Source of the DNA: an uncultured Planctomycetaceae bacterium
GTDB taxonomy: Bacteria > Planctomycetota > Planctomycetia > Isosphaerales > Isosphaeraceae
DNA length: 64,000 nucleotides
Assembly (NCBI GenBank): GCA_963833985.1
Contig: CAWIAD010000002.1
Coordinates: 2,656,001-2,720,000, forward strand
Direction: 5' to 3'
The notes under the pieces are model-generated. The model was not told the origin of the DNA. It was given only the letters and a program-made list of their open reading frames with translations, and made no database searches. A program made the position numbers and the translations under genes. Every line of letters starts with the position of its first letter. The first letter of the stretch is position 1. Of this stretch, positions 43,950 through 53,518 are shown in pieces.

Positions 43950-46056
43950 TCACGTCTTGCTTGAACCCAGTGCGGAGGCCACCGCTTCCACGCCCACAAC
44001 CGGGTCCAGGCAGGTCGAATTCTCGCAGATGTAGGTTGTGGTCCGGCTCTCACGGCTGGGCCGGTCGGCCAGCAGCGGGATCCGCTCGAGCAGGGTCCCG
44101 TCCTGGCCCGCGGCTGCGGGTGCGACCACTGCGCCTGGCTGGAAGCGGGCATGGACTGTCTCCAGGACCTTGCGGAACTCGTCCGGGTCCACACCGGCAA
44201 TGACGGCGATCTCGCGCCGGGGTGACAGCTCGAAATCCAGGGCGATCAGGCTCTGGCCGGCGGCCGCCGGAGCGTTCTTGATCACAGCCTTGACGGCTTC
44301 GAGCGCGGCCAGGCCGGAACCCCGCAGGTCCTCGCGGCCGGTCAGGGCGCCAAGCCGCAGCAGGGCCGTCGCGGCCATGGCATTGCCCGAGGGCGTCGCG
44401 TTGTCGAACAGGTCCTTCGTCCGCGCGATCAAGGCCTCATGGCTCTTCCCGGTGTAGAAGAAGCCACCGCGCTCGGCGTCGGCGAACTCGTCCATCATGA
44501 CCCCTGCCAGGTCGATGGCGGCCTCGATCCAGCGCGGCTCTCCCGAGGCCTCGTATAGCCGGGTCAGACCGTCAATGAAGTTCGCATAGTCGTCCAGGTA
44601 AGCGTTCAGCCGGGCCTGGCCATCCTTGAAGGTGTGCAGTAAACGGCCGTCCGGGGCGCGCAGCCGGTCGAGGATGAAGCCCGCGGCGCGCGCGGCCGCA
44701 TCGAGATAGCGTGGGGCCGCCAGCGCACGGCCCGCGACGGCCAGGGCCGCGATCGCCAGGCCGTTCCACGAGACCAGCACCTTCGTGTCCTTGTGGGGAG
44801 GAATGCGCTGGTCGCGCACGGCCAATAGCTGCGCGCGGCTGTCGGCCAGCTCAGCCGCCAGGTCGTCCTCGGTGCGCGACAGGAGCTTGGCCGCCTGGTC
44901 GATGGGCCGGGGCAGGTTGAGGATGTTCTGGCCCTCCCAGTTACCCGCCTCGGTCACGTCGTAAACGTAGCAGAAGGTCTTGCCGCGATCCGCACCCAGG
45001 ACGTCCCGGATCTGGCTTTGCGACCAGACGTAGTACTTCCCTTCCACGCCCTCGCTGTCGGCGTCCTCGGTGGCGTAGAAGCCGCCTTCGGGCGCGGTCA
45101 TCCGTTCCAGCAAGTAATCGAGTGTTTCCCGCGCCACCTGGTCCCAGCGCCAGGCCGGTGTGCTGGAAGGCCTCGACGTAGGCGGACGCAAGCAGCGCAT
45201 TGTCGTAGAGCATCTTCTCGAAATGAGGCACGAGCCAGCGTTCGTCGGTGGAGTAGCGCGCGAAGCCGCCGCCCAGGTGGTCGTAGATGCCTCCGCGGGC
45301 CATCTTGTCGAGCGTGAGCGTGACCGCGTGCAGCGCCTGGTCGTCTCCTTTGCGGGCGGCCTGGCGCAAGAGCACCTTCAGGTCCATGGGATGCGGGAAC
45401 TTGGGTGCCGAGCCGAACCCGCCGTGAAGCGCGTCGAAATTCTTGACCAGCGACCGGGCCGCCTGGTCGAGCTGGCCGGCGTGAAGCGGCTGCTCGCTCC
45501 CGGCCGCCAGCTCGCCCATGGTCCGCAGCCGCCCGGTCATGTCCGCGGCCGCGTCCAGGATCTCGTCCCGGCGCTCGTCCCAGGCCTTGTGCACGCTCAG
45601 GAGCACGCGTGGAAAGCCCGGCATGCCGCGGGCATCCGACGGCGGAAAATAGGTGCCTCCGTAGAACGGCTCGAGTCCGGGCGTGAGGAACACGGACATC
45701 GGCCAGCCGCCGTGCCCGGTCATCGCCTGCACCGCGTTCATGTAAATCTGGTCCAGGTCGGGCCGCTCCTCGCGATCCACCTTGATATTCACGAAGTGCG
45801 CGTTCATGATTGCCGCGATGTCCGCATTCTCGAAGCTTTCCCGCTCCATGACATGGCACCAGTGGCACGCCGAGTAGCCGATGGACAGGAAGATCGGCTT
45901 GTTCTCGCTCCGGGCGCGCTCGATCGCCTCCGGGCCCCAGGGATGCCAGTCCACCGGGTTGTGTGCGTGTTGCAGCAGGTACGGGCTCGTCTCGCCGGCG
46001 AGCCGGTTGGCCGGCCGGTCAGCCGGATGCAAGGCGTTCGTGTGCGTCGTTGCCAT
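43950..46056 (-). CDS. Thioredoxin-domain protein YyaL/DUF255 (SPATA20-like); frameshift near 45150
   Basis: [58 protein letters not shown]. Confidence 0.93.
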
Positions 46057-46383
46057 GGCAATCGTTCTCCTCGCGAGCGGGTGTGGCATGATCGGGAGCC
46101 GGCAGTGCATTGTAGAAAGGTTGGCCCGTGCGTCCATGAGCTGTCTGCCGGCGCCGCGGTCCACCGAGCACTACGCGACGGCAGCCGCTCCGCACGCACA
46201 CCGCGGCCCGCTCCGCGGTGCTGGCCAGAGAATCCTTCTCCTCCACCCGCCTGTGGATTGGCGACTGATTTCGGATCGCCAAGAACGGTGGCACTACCTG
46301 ACGAACGAATTGCTCCAGCAACTCGATCGTGGGCGGACCGTCGAGAACTGCTTGTCGTACCAGAACGTCGGTCTATGCGGGGG

Positions 46384-46778
46384 CTCCTCAAATGAGACGT
46401 CTCGCTTCACGCTGAGCCTATGGGAAGAACAGATTCGCGAAGGATCACCTGTTTTAGCGGTAGGGTGTGTCGAGCGCAGCGACGACGCACCGGTGTGGAA
46501 TCCGGAGCGGTGAACCGGTGCGTCGTCGCTGCGCTGGGTGCACCATACAGTCGGGCACATCTGGCTCCATCCGACTCGGTTCATGAGCGCCAGCGTGCAG
46601 CGTAACCGGCCCTTCGGCGGTGAGGACTGGGTCCACCAGACCAAAGTCGCGCCGGGACTGGTCTCCTCGCTCACCCTTCACGGCAATCCAGTCCGAAGGC
46701 CGTCCCGAAGGAGCTGGTTGACCACGCGTCACTTCCCCTGTCATCCAACCAGCCGGCGTGCCTCGAGAGGTCCCCCCC
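46384..46778 (+). repeat. Copy 1 of ~390-bp unit (76-nt leader + REP doublet 46460-46548 + Y1-transposase-like tail + GTCCCC end)
   Basis: Colinear with 48897-49290; GTAG at 46460; ends AGGTCCCCCCC. Confidence 0.88.
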
Positions 46779-46843
46779 TCGGCTCCGTGCGTTGTCTTAT
46801 TCTCCGTTGCTATCGGAACCCGGCTGTGACCAATGCGAACGGT

Positions 46844-48550
46844 CTACACCGCACGGAAACGAGCGCTCTGTTCGCTAAGGCGAGCGGCAGGTCTTAGTTT
46901 CCCTGCTGCTCGGTGATTCTCGGTTTGATAGTGATGTCATACTTCGGCAGGGTCGCCGATCTTTCCAATCGAGCTTCGTACTGCTTCATCTCCTTGGCGG
47001 CGACTCGAACGCCATCGGGATACTCGCCGTGGAGGCGTTTCACGATCGGGTGCCGGCGCTTCCAGGTCATTCGTAGGGCGCATTGCAGGACCACCTTCAG
47101 GCAGTTCAGTAACACGCCGTTCCATTTCTTCTCCAGGGCCGACCAGCAGCGTTCAATCGGGTTGTATTTGCTGTGGTAGGGGGGATAGTACACCAACCGA
47201 ATCTCCAACCCCGACCAGTCGGCAAACTGGACCATCCGTTTCAGGAACTGGGTCCGCCGACCGGAGTTCTTGGGGCCGTTGTCCAGATAGATCACCAGGC
47301 GCTTGACATGCCCGAAGCCTGACCGGACCTGCAGCCACCACATGCGGAGCGCATCGGCCCAAGCGTCGCTGGTCTCGCGCGATCCGAACAGGAGCATCAA
47401 TACCCCGGTCACCCGCATCACGATGCCGAAAGGGACCAGCTTCTCCTTGGCTGGCGGATCGTGATCCCATCCCTTGGCCACTTGACCGTCGGCGGCGGTC
47501 CTGGTTTTTCCCCCCACGAGCGTAATCGCCCAATCCCACCTTCGCCTTGGTGTCCATGGAGATCTCCAGCGCCTCAGGATCGTCCCGAGCCTGTTGCTGC
47601 ACCTCCTTCACGTTGGCGAAGATCGCGTCGGTCTCCTTGGTCTTCTTCAGCGGCCTGCCCTTCTGAATCCGCTTGAGGCGGAAGTTCATGCGGTTGAGGA
47701 TGTCCCGCATGGTGCGCTCGCTGGGCAACGCGTCTCGGGGATAGCCCTTGTCAATCAAGGCTCCTCGCACCTCCGCCGCCGACAGGTTCATGTACCGTCG
47801 CGACGACTTCAGTTCCGGATCGGCGTAGGTATGGGGCTCGACGATCGCACGGATGTCCGCAGCCAGTTGCGGGTCCTTCTCTTCGCTGCGCAGCCGACCT
47901 CTCGCGACGAAATTCTCGAGACAGCGTATCCCTTGACGGGCCTCGTGCAGTCCTTTCAGGACCGTTTCTCGTCCCCAGCCGAAGCGTCGTTCAGCTTGGC
48001 GGGCGCTGCCTTCACAGAGTTCCGTGGCCACCTCGGCCATGAACAATCGGCGCTGGTATCCGGTCAGCCGTCTGGCTCCCGAACAGATCAAGGCGTCGAG
48101 GCACTCAGTGGATCCTTCCATGACGGTTCCCCTCCCTGGTGTACAGACGGCAACAGGCCAGGCTCTAGCCTTGCATCATCTCACAGAACGGGGAAGCTCA
48201 ATTCCGGGTAGATCTCGACGTGCCGGTCGCCTAAGGACGACAAATGAGCCAGGCAGGCGGTCCTCATGATGCCGCAGCAAGTGACGAACTCGCGCCAGCT
48301 TGGAGTGGCTGTCCGCGGGGTTCATGAGGAGCAGGACGATCCCATAGGCAGGGTGTTTCAGACGCACGACCAGTTCGCCGAAGTCTTTGTCTTCGGTCAG
48401 GAGTACCCGCTCTTGGTCGGCCGCCAGCTTCAACACCGTCTCGTCAGCCGCACCCGGAGCAATCTCCTTGACGTACAGAACGTCCACGCCGCTGTGACGC
48501 AGGCCATCCACCAGCAGAGCATCACAACATTCATCCGCGACGAACTTCAC
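46844..48550 (-). CDS. DUF5615 PIN-like toxin, interrupted near its 3' end by the ISAzo13-family element
   Basis: MKFVADE, DETVL..A..ERVLLTEDKDFGEL; GTGA overlap with the antitoxin; removing the IS restores FVVLSEQSARFRAV* with stop at 46844-46846; as assembled it reads into the IS to 48176. Confidence 0.85.
46879..48231 (-). mobile_element. Complete ISAzo13-family insertion sequence, 1353 bp
   Basis: TIRs GGCGAGCGGCAGGTC (46879) and GACGTGCCGGTCGCC (ending 48231), 13/15 match; TAA TSD at 46876-46878 and 48232-48234. Confidence 0.88.
46894..48121 (-). CDS. ISAzo13-family DDE transposase in two frames joined at G6A5 (47505-47515)
   Basis: RRLFMAEV, FGWGRETV, ISMDTKAKV, IYLDNGPKNSGRRTQF, YYPPYHSKYNPIERCW. 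Confidence 0.9.
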
Positions 48551-48783
48551 AGAGCCTCACCCGATGCGACCACAATGTCTTCATTCGCCAGGTGATCCGC
48601 GGCGAAGGCTGCCGCCGCCCGTATGTCTTCCTCTCTCAGGTGAGGATGGTGGACGAGGATTTGTTCGTCCGTCATCCCCTCGGCCAGTTTACGCAGGATC
48701 AGTTCCACCGTGATGCGCGTTCCCTTGATCACGGGTTTGCCGAACATGACCTTGGGGTCCACGCTGATGCGCTCATGAATCAT
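48547..48783 (-). CDS. DUF433 antitoxin
   Basis: RISVDPKVMFGKPVIKGTRITVELIL...HPHLREEDIRAA. Confidence 0.93.
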   Translation of the reverse strand: MIHERISVDPKVMFGKPVIKGTRITVELILRKLAEGMTDEQILVHHPHLREEDIRAAAAFAADHLANEDIVVASGEAL

Positions 48784-48896
48784 GGGGCCGTTCTCCCGCC
48801 TGGAGGAAACACCATCTGGCAGTTCTCTATACATTGTACCGCGGGGGCCGAAAGCCGGTAGCGTCCCGCGCGATAAGGGCGAAAAGTAAGGTAGGG

Positions 48897-49290
48897 CCCC
48901 GCAAAGGGCACGTTGCTCTTCATACTGAGCCTCTGGGAATAACATATTAACAACGCATCTTATTTATTGATGGTAGGGTGTGTCAAGCGCAGCGACGACG
49001 CACCGTTGGTGAATCCTGTGCCGTGAATCGGTGCGTCGTCGCTGCGCTTGACACACCCTACGCTCGGGCACTTCTGGCTCCATCCGACTCGGTTCATGAG
49101 CGCGAGCGTGCAGCGTAACAGGCCCTTCGGCGGTGAGGACTGGGTCCACCAGACGGCAGTCGCGCCGGGACTGGTCTCCTCGCTCACCAGCCCGGGGAAT
49201 CCGGTCCAGGACGCCTCTCCGAAGGATCTGGTTGATCACGGGTCGCTTCCCATGCTATCCAACATGCCGGCACGACTCACGATGTCCCCC
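48897..49290 (+). repeat. Copy 2 of ~390-bp unit; contains a perfect 33-bp inverted REP pair (48973-49005 / 49029-49061)
   Basis: GTAGGGTGTGTCAAGCGCAGCGACGACGCACCG and its exact reverse complement, 23-nt spacer; ends GATGTCCCCC. Confidence 0.92.
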
Positions 49291-49383
49291 TGGAATCCCT
49301 CGTCCCCCCTGGAATCCCTCGCAGTGAAGCATATCGCTCCCTGCTCCGGTTTGTCTTGCGCCCGAAACTTGCTATAGGAAGTC

Positions 49384-50527
49384 ATGGCGAAAAAACGTAC
49401 AGCCACTGGCCCGGCCCCCGTCCGGAGCGACAGCAGCACCTATGATGCCGTCCTGGCCAGCGTCACCGCGCTGCTGGAAGCCGCCCGCCATGCCGCGGCC
49501 CGCAGCGTCAACTCCGTCATCACGACCACGTACTGGGAGATCGGCAGGCGCATCGTCGAGGAGGAGCAACGCGGGCACGAGCGCGCCGCGTACGGCGCGC
49601 GGCTCATCGACCGCTTGTCCGATGACCTCATCCAGCGCTTCGGCCGCGGCTTCAGCAGGGTCAACCTCAAACAGATGCGAAGATTCTACCTGGAATGGAG
49701 CGCCCCCAAGATTGGTCAGACAGCGTCTGCCGAATTCGCAGGGGTCGTGCCCTTGCCGTCAGCGTCAGTCCACCCGCTGTTTTCCGCTCTCCTGGTCCCA
49801 CTATGTCAGGTTGCTCTCGGTGGAGAAGCACCCGGCCCGCCTCTTCTACGAGGCCGAAGCCTTGCGCGGCGGATGGACCGTCCGCCAGCTTGACCGCTAG
49901 ATTGGCACCCAGTTCTACGAGCGCACCCTGCTCTCCCGCGACAAGGCTGCCGTGCTCACGAAGGGGCAGAGGCCCAAGCCCGAAGATGCCTTGACCCCCG
50001 AGGAAGAAATCAAGGATCCCTTCCTGCTCGAATTCCTCGATCTGAAAGACGAATATTCCGAGAGCGATCTTGAAGACGCCCTGATCCGCCACCTGGAATC
50101 CTTCCTGCTGGAATTGGGCGATGATTTCGCCTTCGTCGGACGTCAGCGCCGCCTACGCATTGACGACGAGTGGTATCGCGTCGATCTTGTATTCTTCCAT
50201 CGCCGCCTGCGCTGCCTCGTTCTCATCGACTTGAAACTCGGTAAGCTCACGCCAGGCGACGCCGGCCAAATGCACCTCTACTTATCCTACGCCCGCGAGC
50301 ACTGGACCCGCCCCGACGAGAGTCCCCCGGTCGGATTGATTCTTTGTGCCGAGCACCACGCAGGGGTGGCCAGATATGCCCTCGAAGGGTTGCCCAACAA
50401 GGTGCTGGCGGCGCGGTACCGTACTGCCCTGCCGAGCGAGGAAACGCTGGCCGCAGAGGTCGAACGCACGCGCAAGATGCTGGAGGCACGCCCCAAACGC
50501 GCCTCCAAAAAACCAAGGGAGCGCTGA
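49384..50527 (+). pseudogene. YhcG/DUF1016 PD-(D/E)XK nuclease family gene with a frameshift (~49770) and an in-frame TAG (49898-49900)
   Basis: YWEIGRRIVE, GRGFS..NL..MRRFY, LSWSHY, RQLDR*IGTQFYER, IKDPFLLEFL, DLVFFHRRLRCLVLIDLK, GQMHLY. Confidence 0.85.
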
Positions 50528-50626
50528 TCGTCCCCACGTGGTTGACCGGGTCGCAGACGATCTATGTGTTCGCCGCCGTGCCCGAGCCGCCGATCGTCCG
50601 CGAGATCGACGTGTCGCGGTTACCCA

Positions 50627-50879
50627 GTCCCCGCAAAGAACTCGTTGCGCTTCATGCTGAGCCAATGGGAATAACTGGTTAACGAAGCATCACCTGTATT
50701 GTTGGTAGGCTGTGCCCAGCGCAGCGACGTCGCACCGGTGGGGAAACCAGGGCCGTGAATCGGTGTGTCGTCGCTGCGCTCGACACACCCTACGAGCCAG
50801 CATCGGTGCCTCGTCGCTGCGCTCGACACGACCTGCGAGCCAGAATCGGTGCGTCGTCGCTGCGCTCGACGCGCCCTAC
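50627..50879 (+). repeat. Copy 3 (truncated): 76-nt leader + one forward REP and three tandem reverse REPs at 43-bp period
   Basis: GTCCCCGCAAAG start; GTAG at 50705; reverse arms at 50761-50793, 50804-50836 and 50847-50879 separated by GAGCCAG(C/A)AT. Confidence 0.9.
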
Positions 50880-51055
50880 GGGCTGACAGGATGGCTGCCG
50901 TGGGTGAGCCACACGTCAAGCAGGGCCAGATCGTTTTTTCTGCGTTGAGGGATGAACAGTAGGATTCGCGCCCGGGCGCTGCCATCATGAGAAGAATTCG
51001 CCACGCCCCACCGCGAGCCCGCTTATCAAACCGGCTCGCGCGATGGAGACCCGCC

Positions 51056-53518
51056 ATGATCCGCGCAAAGAGATTCCCAGCCGCTCTTCCCGTCGCCCTG
51101 ATGATCGCCTGCTCGTCGCACGCGGCAGAGGAGGGCGGCCCTGGCCCAGGCCCGCCAGCGCCTGGCCGGGTTGGAGCGGCCTGCAAGCTTGTGGTGCACG
51201 CCACGGAAGCGGCCGGGAACCTCCTCAAGGACAGTGCCTGGAAGCCGCTGGAGCAGGGCTACGAGCGGCGGGGAAACGAGTTCGTCTGCGCCAGTGGCAA
51301 GGCGGAGCGGTCGCGCCGCGGGGCGATCCAGCGCGTGGTGCTGAACCAGAGAACTCCCCAGCCAATCGTCGCCAGTGCCTGGAGCCAGGCGGAGGGAGTG
51401 AGCGGCACGATGGACCCGGGGTACGCAATCTACCTCGACCTCGTATTTGACGACGGCAGCGAGCTATGGGGCCAGCTCGCCGGGTTTCGTACCGGCACGC
51501 ACGACTGGCAACGTGAGGAAGTGGTCGTGTTCCCGGAGAAGCCGATCCGGTCCGTCGACGTCAACCTACTGTTCCGCGAGCACGCGGGAACGGCGTCGTT
51601 CCGCGACCCCGCGCTCCGACCGCTCGACGCCCAGGGCCAGTCCATCCTCTTTGACGGCGTGCCGGTGGTTCCCCAGGGTCCGGCGGTGGAAGGGTTCCAG
51701 GTGCGCGACGTGGCGGCAAACGGCGATTTCGTCCGCATCGCGAATGAGGCGCTGGGGCTGCGGCTGGAGGTCCGCTCCACCGGCCAGGAGCAGGCCACCG
51801 TATTCGACGTCACGGTGCGTGAGACGACAGGCAAGGACCGGGCCGTGACGCTGCTGTATGCGATTCCCGTCCCGCCGCAGGGCCTGAGCTGGCTGGACGA
51901 CCCGCGACGATCGACCACCGTCGCGCCGAAGCGGGAGTACGCGCACACCGTGCCCTTTCGCGCGGGTGCCGGCGGGCGGATGTCGAGCTATCCGCTGGGC
52001 GCCGTGGCATGCCCGGGGGGCCAGGGTGGGGAGGGCCTGAGTTTGGGCCTGGGCCTGGGCATCGACATGGCCCATCCGGCGTTCTACCGGGTGGGCTACA
52101 ACGCGGGAACCGGTGAGCTCTGGATCGCCTACGACCTGGGCCTGGCCCCCGAGAAGCCCGAGGCGCACCTACGTTTCTGCCGGTTTTCGTTCGCGCCGGA
52201 GTGGGGCTTCCGTGCGGCGCTCGAAGCCTATTACCACCTTTTCCCCGACGCCTTCCGCAGGCGGATCGACGGGCAGGGGCTGTGGATGCCCTTCGCCAGG
52301 ATCAGCCAGGTGAAGGGCTGGGAGGATTTCGGGTTCCGCTTCAAGGAGGGCGATGGCGAGACCGCCTGGGACGACGAGCACGGCATCCTCACGTTCCATT
52401 ACACCGAGCCACTGACCTGGTGGATGCCCATGCCCTCCGCGATGCCCCGCACAATCGAGGCCGCCCTGAGCGAGGCCCGCCGCCTGGCCGGCCTGGGAAA
52501 TCGCGAGGCCAGGGCCCTGCTCAGCAGCGGATACCACAACGCCGACGGTGCGCCTGTGGCCCTGTTTCGTGACGAGCCCTGGAACCACGGAGCGGTCTGG
52601 AGCATGAATTCGAGCCCGGGCATCTCCGGCCCGGTCAACGACTTTCAGGTGAAGTGGAGCCCGGCTATCCGCGACCGGCTCTACGGGCCGGGCCACAAGG
52701 GAGTGCTCGACGGCGAATACATCGATTCGAGCGAGGGCTACGTGACCGACGAGCTGGACTTCCGCCGCGAACACTTCGCTGCGGCCGGGACCCCGCTGGT
52801 CTTCAGCCTGGGCACGCACCGGCCGGCGGTCTTCCGCGGCCTGATCGCTTTCGGGTACATCCGGGCCATCGCGGACGACAGGCACGCCGCCGGCAAGCTG
52901 ATGATGGCCAACGCCACGCCCGACCGCCTCTGCTGGCTGGCGCCTCTGGTGGACGTGCTGGGCACCGAGATCGACTGGAACCCCCGGGGCAAGTGGCGGC
53001 CCATGGATGACGCCCAGTTGCTCTACCGCCGCGCTCTCTGCCGCACGAAGCCTTATTGTTTTCTCATGAACACCAATTTCAGCAAGCTGCCGCACGATCT
53101 GGTGGAACGCTACATGAAGCGTGCGCTGGCTTACGGTTTCTTCCCGGGCTTCTTCAGCGAGAACGCGTCGGAGGGCCACTACTTCAGTCAGCCCGTGCTC
53201 TACGACCGCGACCGGCCGCTCTTCCGCAAGTACGTGCCGCTCTGCAAGCTCGTTGCCGAGGCCGGCTGGGAGCCGGTGACCGGCGCGCGCTCGAGCGACG
53301 AGCACGTTCACCTGGAACGCTTCGGCACCACCGGAACCCGCTACCTGACGGTCTTCAATGACAGCCGCCAGCCGCGCACCGCAACGCTCACCCTGGAGCT
53401 GAAGGCGGCGGAGAGCGGCCGCGAGCTGGTGCGCGGAAACGCGGTCTCCTGGTCCGGCGGCAAGACCCGGATCACGCTCGACGGCGAGGACGTGGCCGTG
53501 CTCGAGCTGCGGCCCTGA
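51056..53518 (+). CDS. Secreted hypothetical protein; carbohydrate-binding-like N-terminal domain plus probable glycoside-hydrolase-like catalytic domain
   Basis: Signal peptide; GNLL..., GTHDWQREE jelly-roll motif; DGEYIDSSEG, LMMAN, DVLGTE barrel-like motifs. Confidence 0.65.
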   Translation: MIRAKRFPAALPVALMIACSSHAAEEGGPGPGPPAPGRVGAACKLVVHATEAAGNLLKDSAWKPLEQGYERRGNEFVCASGKAERSRRGAIQRVVLNQRTPQPIVASAWSQAEGVSGTMDPGYAIYLDLVFDDGSELWGQLAGFRTGTHDWQREEVVVFPEKPIRSVDVNLLFREHAGTASFRDPALRPLDAQGQSILFDGVPVVPQGPAVEGFQVRDVAANGDFVRIANEALGLRLEVRSTGQEQATVFDVTVRETTGKDRAVTLLYAIPVPPQGLSWLDDPRRSTTVAPKREYAHTVPFRAGAGGRMSSYPLGAVACPGGQGGEGLSLGLGLGIDMAHPAFYRVGYNAGTGELWIAYDLGLAPEKPEAHLRFCRFSFAPEWGFRAALEAYYHLFPDAFRRRIDGQGLWMPFARISQVKGWEDFGFRFKEGDGETAWDDEHGILTFHYTEPLTWWMPMPSAMPRTIEAALSEARRLAGLGNREARALLSSGYHNADGAPVALFRDEPWNHGAVWSMNSSPGISGPVNDFQVKWSPAIRDRLYGPGHKGVLDGEYIDSSEGYVTDELDFRREHFAAAGTPLVFSLGTHRPAVFRGLIAFGYIRAIADDRHAAGKLMMANATPDRLCWLAPLVDVLGTEIDWNPRGKWRPMDDAQLLYRRALCRTKPYCFLMNTNFSKLPHDLVERYMKRALAYGFFPGFFSENASEGHYFSQPVLYDRDRPLFRKYVPLCKLVAEAGWEPVTGARSSDEHVHLERFGTTGTRYLTVFNDSRQPRTATLTLELKAAESGRELVRGNAVSWSGGKTRITLDGEDVAVLELRP

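Follow-up and report, generated by a model that had tools for sequence, protein, structure and literature searches.

A direct array of putative TIRtron remnants alternating with toxin-antitoxin and nuclease genes in an Isosphaeraceae genome

The array described here lies in a 64,000-nt stretch (the window) on contig C2 of an uncultured Planctomycetaceae bacterium, whose 10.16 Mb genome is held in two contigs (C1 and C2). In particular, a foreign insert of ~4.8 kb, spanning about 46145-50960 by comparison with the empty sites of relatives, contains three direct copies of a repeated unit, between which lie a toxin-antitoxin (TA) pair and a yhcG nuclease gene. The unit appears to be a gene-less derivative of a TIRtron, an element bounded by terminal inverted repeats (TIRs), and its copies probably record the successive entry of accessory genes into the same site. 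An earlier note, made from the letters of this stretch alone, had recognized the three copies, had drawn the insert too small and had proposed an integron-like locus.

The array and its host site

The features of the insert and of its flanks are the following, with positions counted in the window.

44941..46058, minus strand: 5′ part of a yyaL-type host gene (DUF255/thioredoxin, Pfam PF03190), the left flank
46145..46382: inserted DNA ahead of copy 1, with no assigned identity, absent from the relatives' empty sites
46383..46459, plus strand: copy 1 leader, a degenerate left TIR and its inner flank, in register with copy 2
46460..46548: copy 1 GTAG repetitive extragenic palindrome (REP) doublet (46460-46492 and 46516-46548)
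46549..46790, plus strand: copy 1 putative 3′ remnant of a Y1 subclass 2.1 gene (profile E 7e-7), its 3′ flank and right TIR (end-family profile)
46879..48231, minus strand: ISAZ013-family insertion sequence (IS; Pfam PF07592), near the end of the DUF5615 gene, with TAA duplicated
48235..48550, minus strand: DUF5615 (PIN-like) toxin gene, split by the IS (Pfam PF18480)
48547..48780, minus strand: DUF433 antitoxin-type gene (Pfam PF04255)
48896..48972, plus strand: copy 2 leader, in which 48896-48921 is the left TIR, in the orientation of a TIRtron left end
48973..49061: copy 2 REP doublet, with perfect 33-nt arms
49062..49321, plus strand: copy 2 putative Y1 3′ remnant and right TIR (~49274-49302), with a tandem double to 49321
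49384..50527, plus strand: yhcG nuclease gene (DUF1016_N/YhcG_C, Pfam PF17761 and PF06250)
50525..50625, minus strand: 101-bp piece of an Rhs/YD-repeat gene (up to 85% to eight genomic matches)
50628..50793, plus strand: copy 3, a leader (degenerate left TIR) and REP doublet
50802..50879, minus strand: two more REP units in a 43-nt tandem
51056..53518, plus strand: right-flank host gene, found near yyaL in relatives

As the earlier note had seen, the direct copies begin at 46384, 48897 and 50629. They align without gaps over 166 nt (76-83% identity); copies 1 and 2 are alignable over ~395 nt (81%), close to the ~390 bp it had estimated. The 76-nt leaders are identical at 59/76 positions between copies 2 and 3, the figure previously counted by hand, at 56/76 between copies 1 and 3, and at 50/76 between copies 1 and 2. 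Their abrupt start is real, with ungapped identity at chance level within about 10 nt upstream. At the other side, a sharp end at GTCCCC is only approximately right: the conserved right end extends ~10 nt beyond this motif, and it is tandemly doubled in copy 2. Copy 3 has neither the Y1 remnant nor the right TIR.

Pfam matches support the cargo identities assigned before, DUF433-DUF5615 and yhcG/DUF1016. The ISAZ013 copy is 99.9-100% identical to nine other genomic copies, which, together with the TAA duplication, indicates that the IS arrived late. The yhcG reading frame is disrupted twice, by a change of frame and by an in-frame stop codon (49898-49900), and a promoter-like stretch upstream of the gene is, by eye, alike in several homologues. 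The short fragment described beside yhcG is present and comes from a host Rhs/YD gene; it ends one base from copy 3, and its join to yhcG carries no C-run, contrary to the bracketing first proposed. Cargo orientation is mixed, with the TA pair on the minus strand, yhcG on the plus strand and the Rhs piece on the minus strand. The second cargo was also considered as a circularly permuted target, which was rejected because the Rhs donor's continuation is not found at its left end. For the DNA ahead of copy 1 (46145..46382), no second genomic copy was found, and three open frames gave no family match above cut-off.

The host site is variable across the genus. Orthologues of the yyaL-type gene are present in 13/13 same-genus genomes; the two genes that flank the site lie about 240 bp apart in G002 and G010, G011 has the same empty spacer, and G004, G007 and G013 carry unrelated inserts of ~1.9, ~3.1 and ~6.5 kb. 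Unit-like sequence occurs in 0/12 stretches fetched from relatives at this site. The empty sites predate the unit. At the same site, genome G006 (L025, C1332:1-1370) carries two genes that by eye are nuclease-like and DNA methyltransferase-like. In the window itself, the yyaL-type gene (43950-46164) is divided between two frames near 45100-45200, by either a real frameshift or an error of assembly.

The repeated unit as a deleted TIRtron

TIRtrons have terminal repeats with a GGGGWSAS core (Di Nocera et al. 2013, PMC3733652), and their TIRYT transposases correspond to subclass 2.1 of the TnpA-Y1 enzymes (Quentin et al. 2018, PMC6006769). Judged by its sequence, the unit consists of a left TIR, a REP doublet, the tail of a Y1 gene (~40 codons) and a right TIR, and it is best described as an internally deleted TIRtron that has become gene-less. 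Since the leader is its left end, the points at which the unit always begins and stops are the inverted termini of a single element, and the breakpoints of the array lie there. The earlier note had derived the unit from a Y1 HUH element, and both the gene tail and the TIR ends agree with it.

Beyond the REP doublet, the unit codes for the final ~40 residues of a Y1 transposase, of the type that bears an RGRP motif near its C-terminus. It matches an intact Y1 of the same genome at C2:6400696 (tblastn E 1e-6), and a Y1 profile built from intact relatives matches the two tails with E 1e-7 and 7e-7 (48-55% to the relatives' intact genes). A six-frame profile search of the units covers only model positions 169-225 of 228 and meets neither the HUH motif nor the catalytic tyrosine, which makes the unit a derivative rather than an intact member. 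The right end (~85 nt) has 15 genomic copies at E<=0.1, 12 of them at E<1e-6, with ragged 5′ limits. At the left end, a matrix built on 35 TIRs beside intact genes of relatives gives the copy 2 TIR a score of 11.7 bits; only 51 positions in the genome, counting both strands, reach this score (p~1e-4 for the best of 24 positions), in a test designed after the likeness had been spotted by eye. Moreover, this TIR is identical at 20/24 positions to the left TIR of locus L093 and aligns with other TIR families of the genome, and a left-end profile has its best window match at the copy 2 leader, weakly (E 0.33). The GGGGWSAS-like core is found at both ends of copy 2; the left TIRs of copies 1 and 3 are degenerate, and their leaders alone score weakly (p 0.08 and 0.06), both in register with copy 2.

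These assignments alter the meaning of the C-runs. The same motif was held to bracket each cargo; instead, the left C-run borders an inverted TIR on its outer side, ~10 nt away from the TIR core, and is not the right-hand GTCCCC in the same orientation (direct likeness p~0.02-0.15). The leader is not an inverted copy of the unit's own right end, pairwise tests being non-significant (best p~0.05 of 36), and it matches the TIRs of related families instead. It does not behave as coding sequence, as its variable sites are spread 10/11/10 over codon positions and the Y1 profile has no match there. An IS110 non-coding end or a group II intron was dropped as an identity for the unit once its tail turned out to be Y1 coding sequence. 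Rfam returned miRNA-hairpin matches only, all below the gathering score, and a promoter scan of the leaders in the inward direction found none.

The composite of leader, REP and tail, including its spacer, occurs only at this insert, while its REP and right end are dispersed, the GTAG REP doublet family having 114 copies in 64 clusters genome-wide. A composite scattered singly among random flanks, as in an ordinary dispersed miniature inverted-repeat element or REPIN, is therefore not what is seen. A whole-unit search of 30 relatives matched only the REP part; the leader gave two short, chance-like matches in 400 other genomes of the class; and metagenome scans gave 0 for the leader and 0 for the end motifs. 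The Y1-tail search of 120 genomes of the order returned two matches, a short end beside a by-eye PIN-like gene, and one intact Y1. A scan of a genome collection returned three matches that have neither a Y1 nor longer homology and so are taken as chance. In small shares of public read runs, the matched pieces from four runs cover mainly the IS and yyaL, and none spans the array. A weak fourth leader-like sequence (E 4e-5) lies on the opposite strand at C2:6101081-6101136 (L042), just upstream of an ECF sigma gene.

The unit resembles TIRtrons (PMC3733652, PMC6006769) in its inverted GGGGAC-type ends, in its subclass 2.1 C-terminal remnant, and in having both dispersed and clustered TIR copies. 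It differs by lacking the HUH motif and catalytic tyrosine, by carrying a REP doublet in place of most of the gene, and, as far as the available descriptions in these papers go, by standing in direct arrays with cargo.

TIR ends and direct repeats across the genome

Copies of the right end lie close to the same kinds of genes elsewhere. Outside the window, 6/11 copies are within 700 bp of a TA, yhcG or Uma2 gene, against a background of 2.1%, a count made without both copies in the window, a member of a close pair and the lowest-scoring of the 15 profile matches, and with gene families that were picked in part after their neighbours had been viewed; without Uma2, the figure is 4/11 against 1.5%. 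By the same measure, proximity is found for 4/58 REP clusters and 0/9 ISAZ013 copies. By themselves, GTCCCC and similar short motifs show no enrichment close to TA genes (24/60 vs 272/600). Further, at C2:2738853 and C2:6399040, a second copy of host DNA starts about 11 nt after the TIR core of this end family, which ties TIR ends to such junctions.

The layout recurs beyond chance. Four more arrays alternate TIR-bounded mini-elements with TA-type cargo, making five in all from three end families; the ends of the others resemble those of the intact Y1 at C2:551949 and of a multi-copy Y1 with the YxDLNP motif, which is that of subclass 2.3 (PMC6006769, Table 1). Adjacent mini-element copies within 6 kb of one another are co-oriented in three families, with same/opposite counts of 8/0, 5/0 and 2/0 (sum 15/0; families C and E overlap, and only E's count enters the sum).

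Direct repeats around TA genes are also frequent in their own right. Long direct repeats (40-689 bp, 73-99%) flank 29/60 TA/yhcG hits and 5/120 control genes. Collapsed to loci, 26/57 TA loci are bracketed by direct and 3/57 by inverted repeats, compared with 7/150 and 1/150 at random sites; the TA families were partly picked after viewing neighbours, and the gene caller used misses atypical genes. About half of the genome's TA loci are thus bracketed by long direct repeats. Many of these repeats are unique host DNA, often the end of a gene, with no TIR core at the junction. For example, a three-copy array with a ParE gene at C1:2696317 is made of a host gene end and has no Y1 part. Uma2 genes are bracketed as well (18/61). 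Genome-wide, there are 131 two-copy local direct repeats (50-1200 bp around inserts of 0.25-10 kb); some are 95-100% identical, so that the bracketing process looks ongoing, and many others are paralogous genes. In one relative (G120), a single case of a TIR-like palindrome pair surrounds a PIN gene.

Several other loci show similar parts. A larger array of the same kind (C2:489300-509100; L182 covers it as far as 507000) extends over 20 kb. In it, a TIR-bounded mini-element of ~190 bp is repeated as nine pieces, all in one orientation, and the cargo between them consists of MazE/PemK, Phd/PIN, Uma2, leucine-rich repeat, ankyrin and IS genes. Three-copy direct arrays with TacA, PemK, PIN or ParE genes between the mini-elements lie at C1:1970043-1972437, C1:458556-461409 and C2:5692251-5696324, the last having a unit in which a left TIR directly meets the 3′ end of a multi-copy Y1. 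At C2:6398100-6403400 (L034), a Y1 tail, a truncated yhcG, a short right end, TauE and ABM genes, an intact TIRYT and a Phd-PIN pair form a second small unit-yhcG-unit arrangement.

TIRtron ends also head Rhs fragments at C2:4675470, 5615950, 5612949, 5610293, 5714840 and 678444, in Rhs arrays and at two sites outside them, which suggests a part for TIR ends in the formation of orphan Rhs modules. A 1.5-kb element with a DDE transposase has ends that abut TIR cores at four places (C2:1901058-1902581, C2:3541175-3542697, C1:292129-293652 and C2:4140155-4141646), as if it targeted TIRtron ends. A different IS-like gene stands behind TIR ends in two places, at C2:3194531 and after C2:551949. Intact TIRYT genes at C2:2426979-2428406 and C2:3099669-3100062 are flanked by long tandem TIR runs; genome-wide, 11/31 cores in such runs break right at the core's 5′ side, possibly the signature of a cut site. 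The multi-copy Y1 (~350 aa) has at least 11 copies at 87-100% and 14 near-full matches (e.g. C2:6223754-6222675), with a TIR on its 5′ side and REP-like hairpin clusters on its 3′ side, and from these copies it seems to behave like an active IS.

Origin of the array

The array is of considerable age and in decay: the differences among the three leaders are star-like, yhcG no longer has an intact frame, and an IS has entered the toxin gene. Between copies 1 and 2, the centre is identical at 119/127 positions (94%), and the flanks at 51/77, 62/87 and 21/33 (64-71%, for the leader, distal tail and right TIR). The best 120-nt window has 114 identical positions, a value reached by 0/5000 shuffles. 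Over part of this central stretch, family members from elsewhere show about 79-87% identity, so that it is conserved in general, yet the pair formed by copies 1 and 2 exceeds that level. The 94% core is plausibly the mark of a crossover or gene-conversion tract between old copies.

We favour, as the probable account, an array built by insertion with long target duplication, with a Y1 enzyme likely setting the breakpoints and homologous recombination between copies following later. Accessory genes would have entered successively, each duplicating its landing site, a resident mini-TIRtron. A TIRYT encoded elsewhere would nick single-stranded DNA at the TIRs, giving breakpoints at the element's two ends, and repair or recombination would join foreign DNA at the nicks and recopy the element. 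Through the direct copies, alleles that differ in cargo could subsequently be stacked or lost, and later recombination between them is suggested by their patchy identity.

Long target duplication itself was reportedly described by Nobusato et al. in 2000, a work that Furuta et al. cite. The scar has been described for restriction-modification genes (Furuta et al. 2010, PMC2853133), and, in its accessible part, another paper (PMC2654758) cites the long-duplication work only for restriction-modification. As in those cases, the accessory genes here are enclosed by direct repeats that measure tens to hundreds of bases, with no recombinase in cis, and amplification through the repeats is possible. 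The repeats, one pair of 396 bp enclosing 2.1 kb and one of 166 bp enclosing 1.6 kb, fall within the published definition (direct repeats >30 bp around an insert <20 kb). In contrast, the cargo is a TA pair and yhcG rather than restriction-modification genes, the array is nested with three copies, and the repeat is itself a mobile remnant, although the definition excludes other mobile elements. The array therefore works like such an insertion and is not a strict member of the class.

Several observations weigh against this account. The likely parent Y1 subgroup is absent from the genome at E<=1e-60 and present in 65/120 relatives. The copy ends are 64-71% alike, little closer than unrelated family members, so that the copies are no clean recent duplication. 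In no relative does the empty site hold one copy of the unit, and target duplication is accordingly deduced and not seen. A TIR-like core lies near the junction in only 5/131 two-copy local repeats, and Y1 involvement is thus not general. A fourth family (D) has seven same and six opposite neighbours, the copies of array B are no closer to one another than to distant copies, and in three relatives the bracketing is weak (5/31 PIN genes vs 4/54 control stretches).

The direct, single-element architecture would also follow if a circle of one mini-TIRtron plus cargo were excised and conservatively integrated at a resident mini-TIRtron by TIRYT in trans, as in IS26 translocatable units, so that polarised arrays gain and lose cargo. 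The layout agrees with the IS26 model (Harmer et al. 2014, PMC4196232), in which directly oriented single elements flank and separate unique segments; junctions at element ends, the five arrays of three end families, the proximity of end copies to TA, yhcG and Uma2 genes, and a near-identical central tract that fits a crossover all point the same way. However, IS26 is an intact DDE element that needs an intact transposase in both copies for high frequency (PMC4196232), whereas the units here are gene-less HUH remnants, 64-94% alike, and copy 3 has no right end. No cargo common to different arrays of the genome was found, and the unit's end family is present in 0/20 cargo-homologue loci of relatives (three are by eye near TIR-like motifs or Y1 genes of other families). 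With host-DNA repeats producing the same layout without any element, we regard this mechanism as unlikely. Its more general form, in which mini-TIRtrons are landing pads of an integrase-free cassette system and TIRYT in trans moves units of element plus cargo to build all five polarised TA arrays, we consider quite unlikely. Independent local hops of the mini-element into an accessory region that tolerates insertions, with nearby deletions cutting the adjoining DNA back as far as the element ends and cargo arriving separately, would fit the variable site, the Rhs piece cut one base from the TIR edge and the scattered, ragged right-end copies elsewhere. But such hops should give mixed orientations, against the 15/0 count; inverted brackets are rare at TA loci; and the composite is found nowhere else, which makes them very unlikely.

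Integrons are recognized by an IntI integrase, attC sites (RYYYAAC...GTTRRRY) after each cassette, and co-oriented cassettes. The array shares with them the alternation of repeats and cargo and the presence of TA genes, and the proposal that gene cassettes undergo strand transfer at a GTCCCC repeated in direct orientation could draw on starts fixed within 0-10 nt, on the weak direct likeness of leader starts to the right-end motif, and on the cores broken at their 5′ side near intact genes. The inverted left TIR nevertheless explains the leader start far better. None of the 13 PF00589 (tyrosine recombinase) matches falls in the window, so the note's remark on a missing integrase holds, and intact Y1 genes do exist elsewhere in the genome (seven Pfam matches). 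No match to the integron integrase model TIGR02249 exceeds the cut-off in the genome, and no attC-type core pair 25-130 nt apart occurs on either strand of 46100-51000. Cargo faces both ways, the yhcG gene has its own promoter-like stretch, and the yhcG-Rhs join has no C-run. Moreover, relatives' cargo homologues stand without the unit, and the same scar appears at many host-DNA repeats without a TIR core. An integron-like origin is scarcely credible. REPIN and REP families with RAYT offer a looser parallel, through the GTAG doublet and a proposed link of Y1 enzymes to variable cargo, such as TnpA-REP beside lanthipeptide genes (bioRxiv 10.1101/2020.03.09.984088).

Overall, the feature is real and made of known parts, whose combination and genome-wide frequency we did not find described. 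Literature searches found no paper on arrays of mini-TIRtrons and TA genes, with most subscription journals outside their coverage, and the supplements of PMC3733652 and PMC6006769 may list gene-less TIR elements. Y1 subclass 2.1 genes are common and have no known role, and there is little explanation of how chromosomal TA modules arrive without a carrier. The present genome connects these two matters, in that about half of its TA loci carry long-duplication scars and TIRtron ends lie beside such cargo, sometimes exactly at the junction. It also supplies named substrates, namely two TIRs with a predicted break about 10 nt outside each core. If Y1 plays no part, the locus would be an ordinary decayed scar; if TIRYT enzymes do move such cassettes, the system would parallel, with an HUH enzyme, the translocatable units of IS26, and Y1 subclass 2.1 would gain a function.

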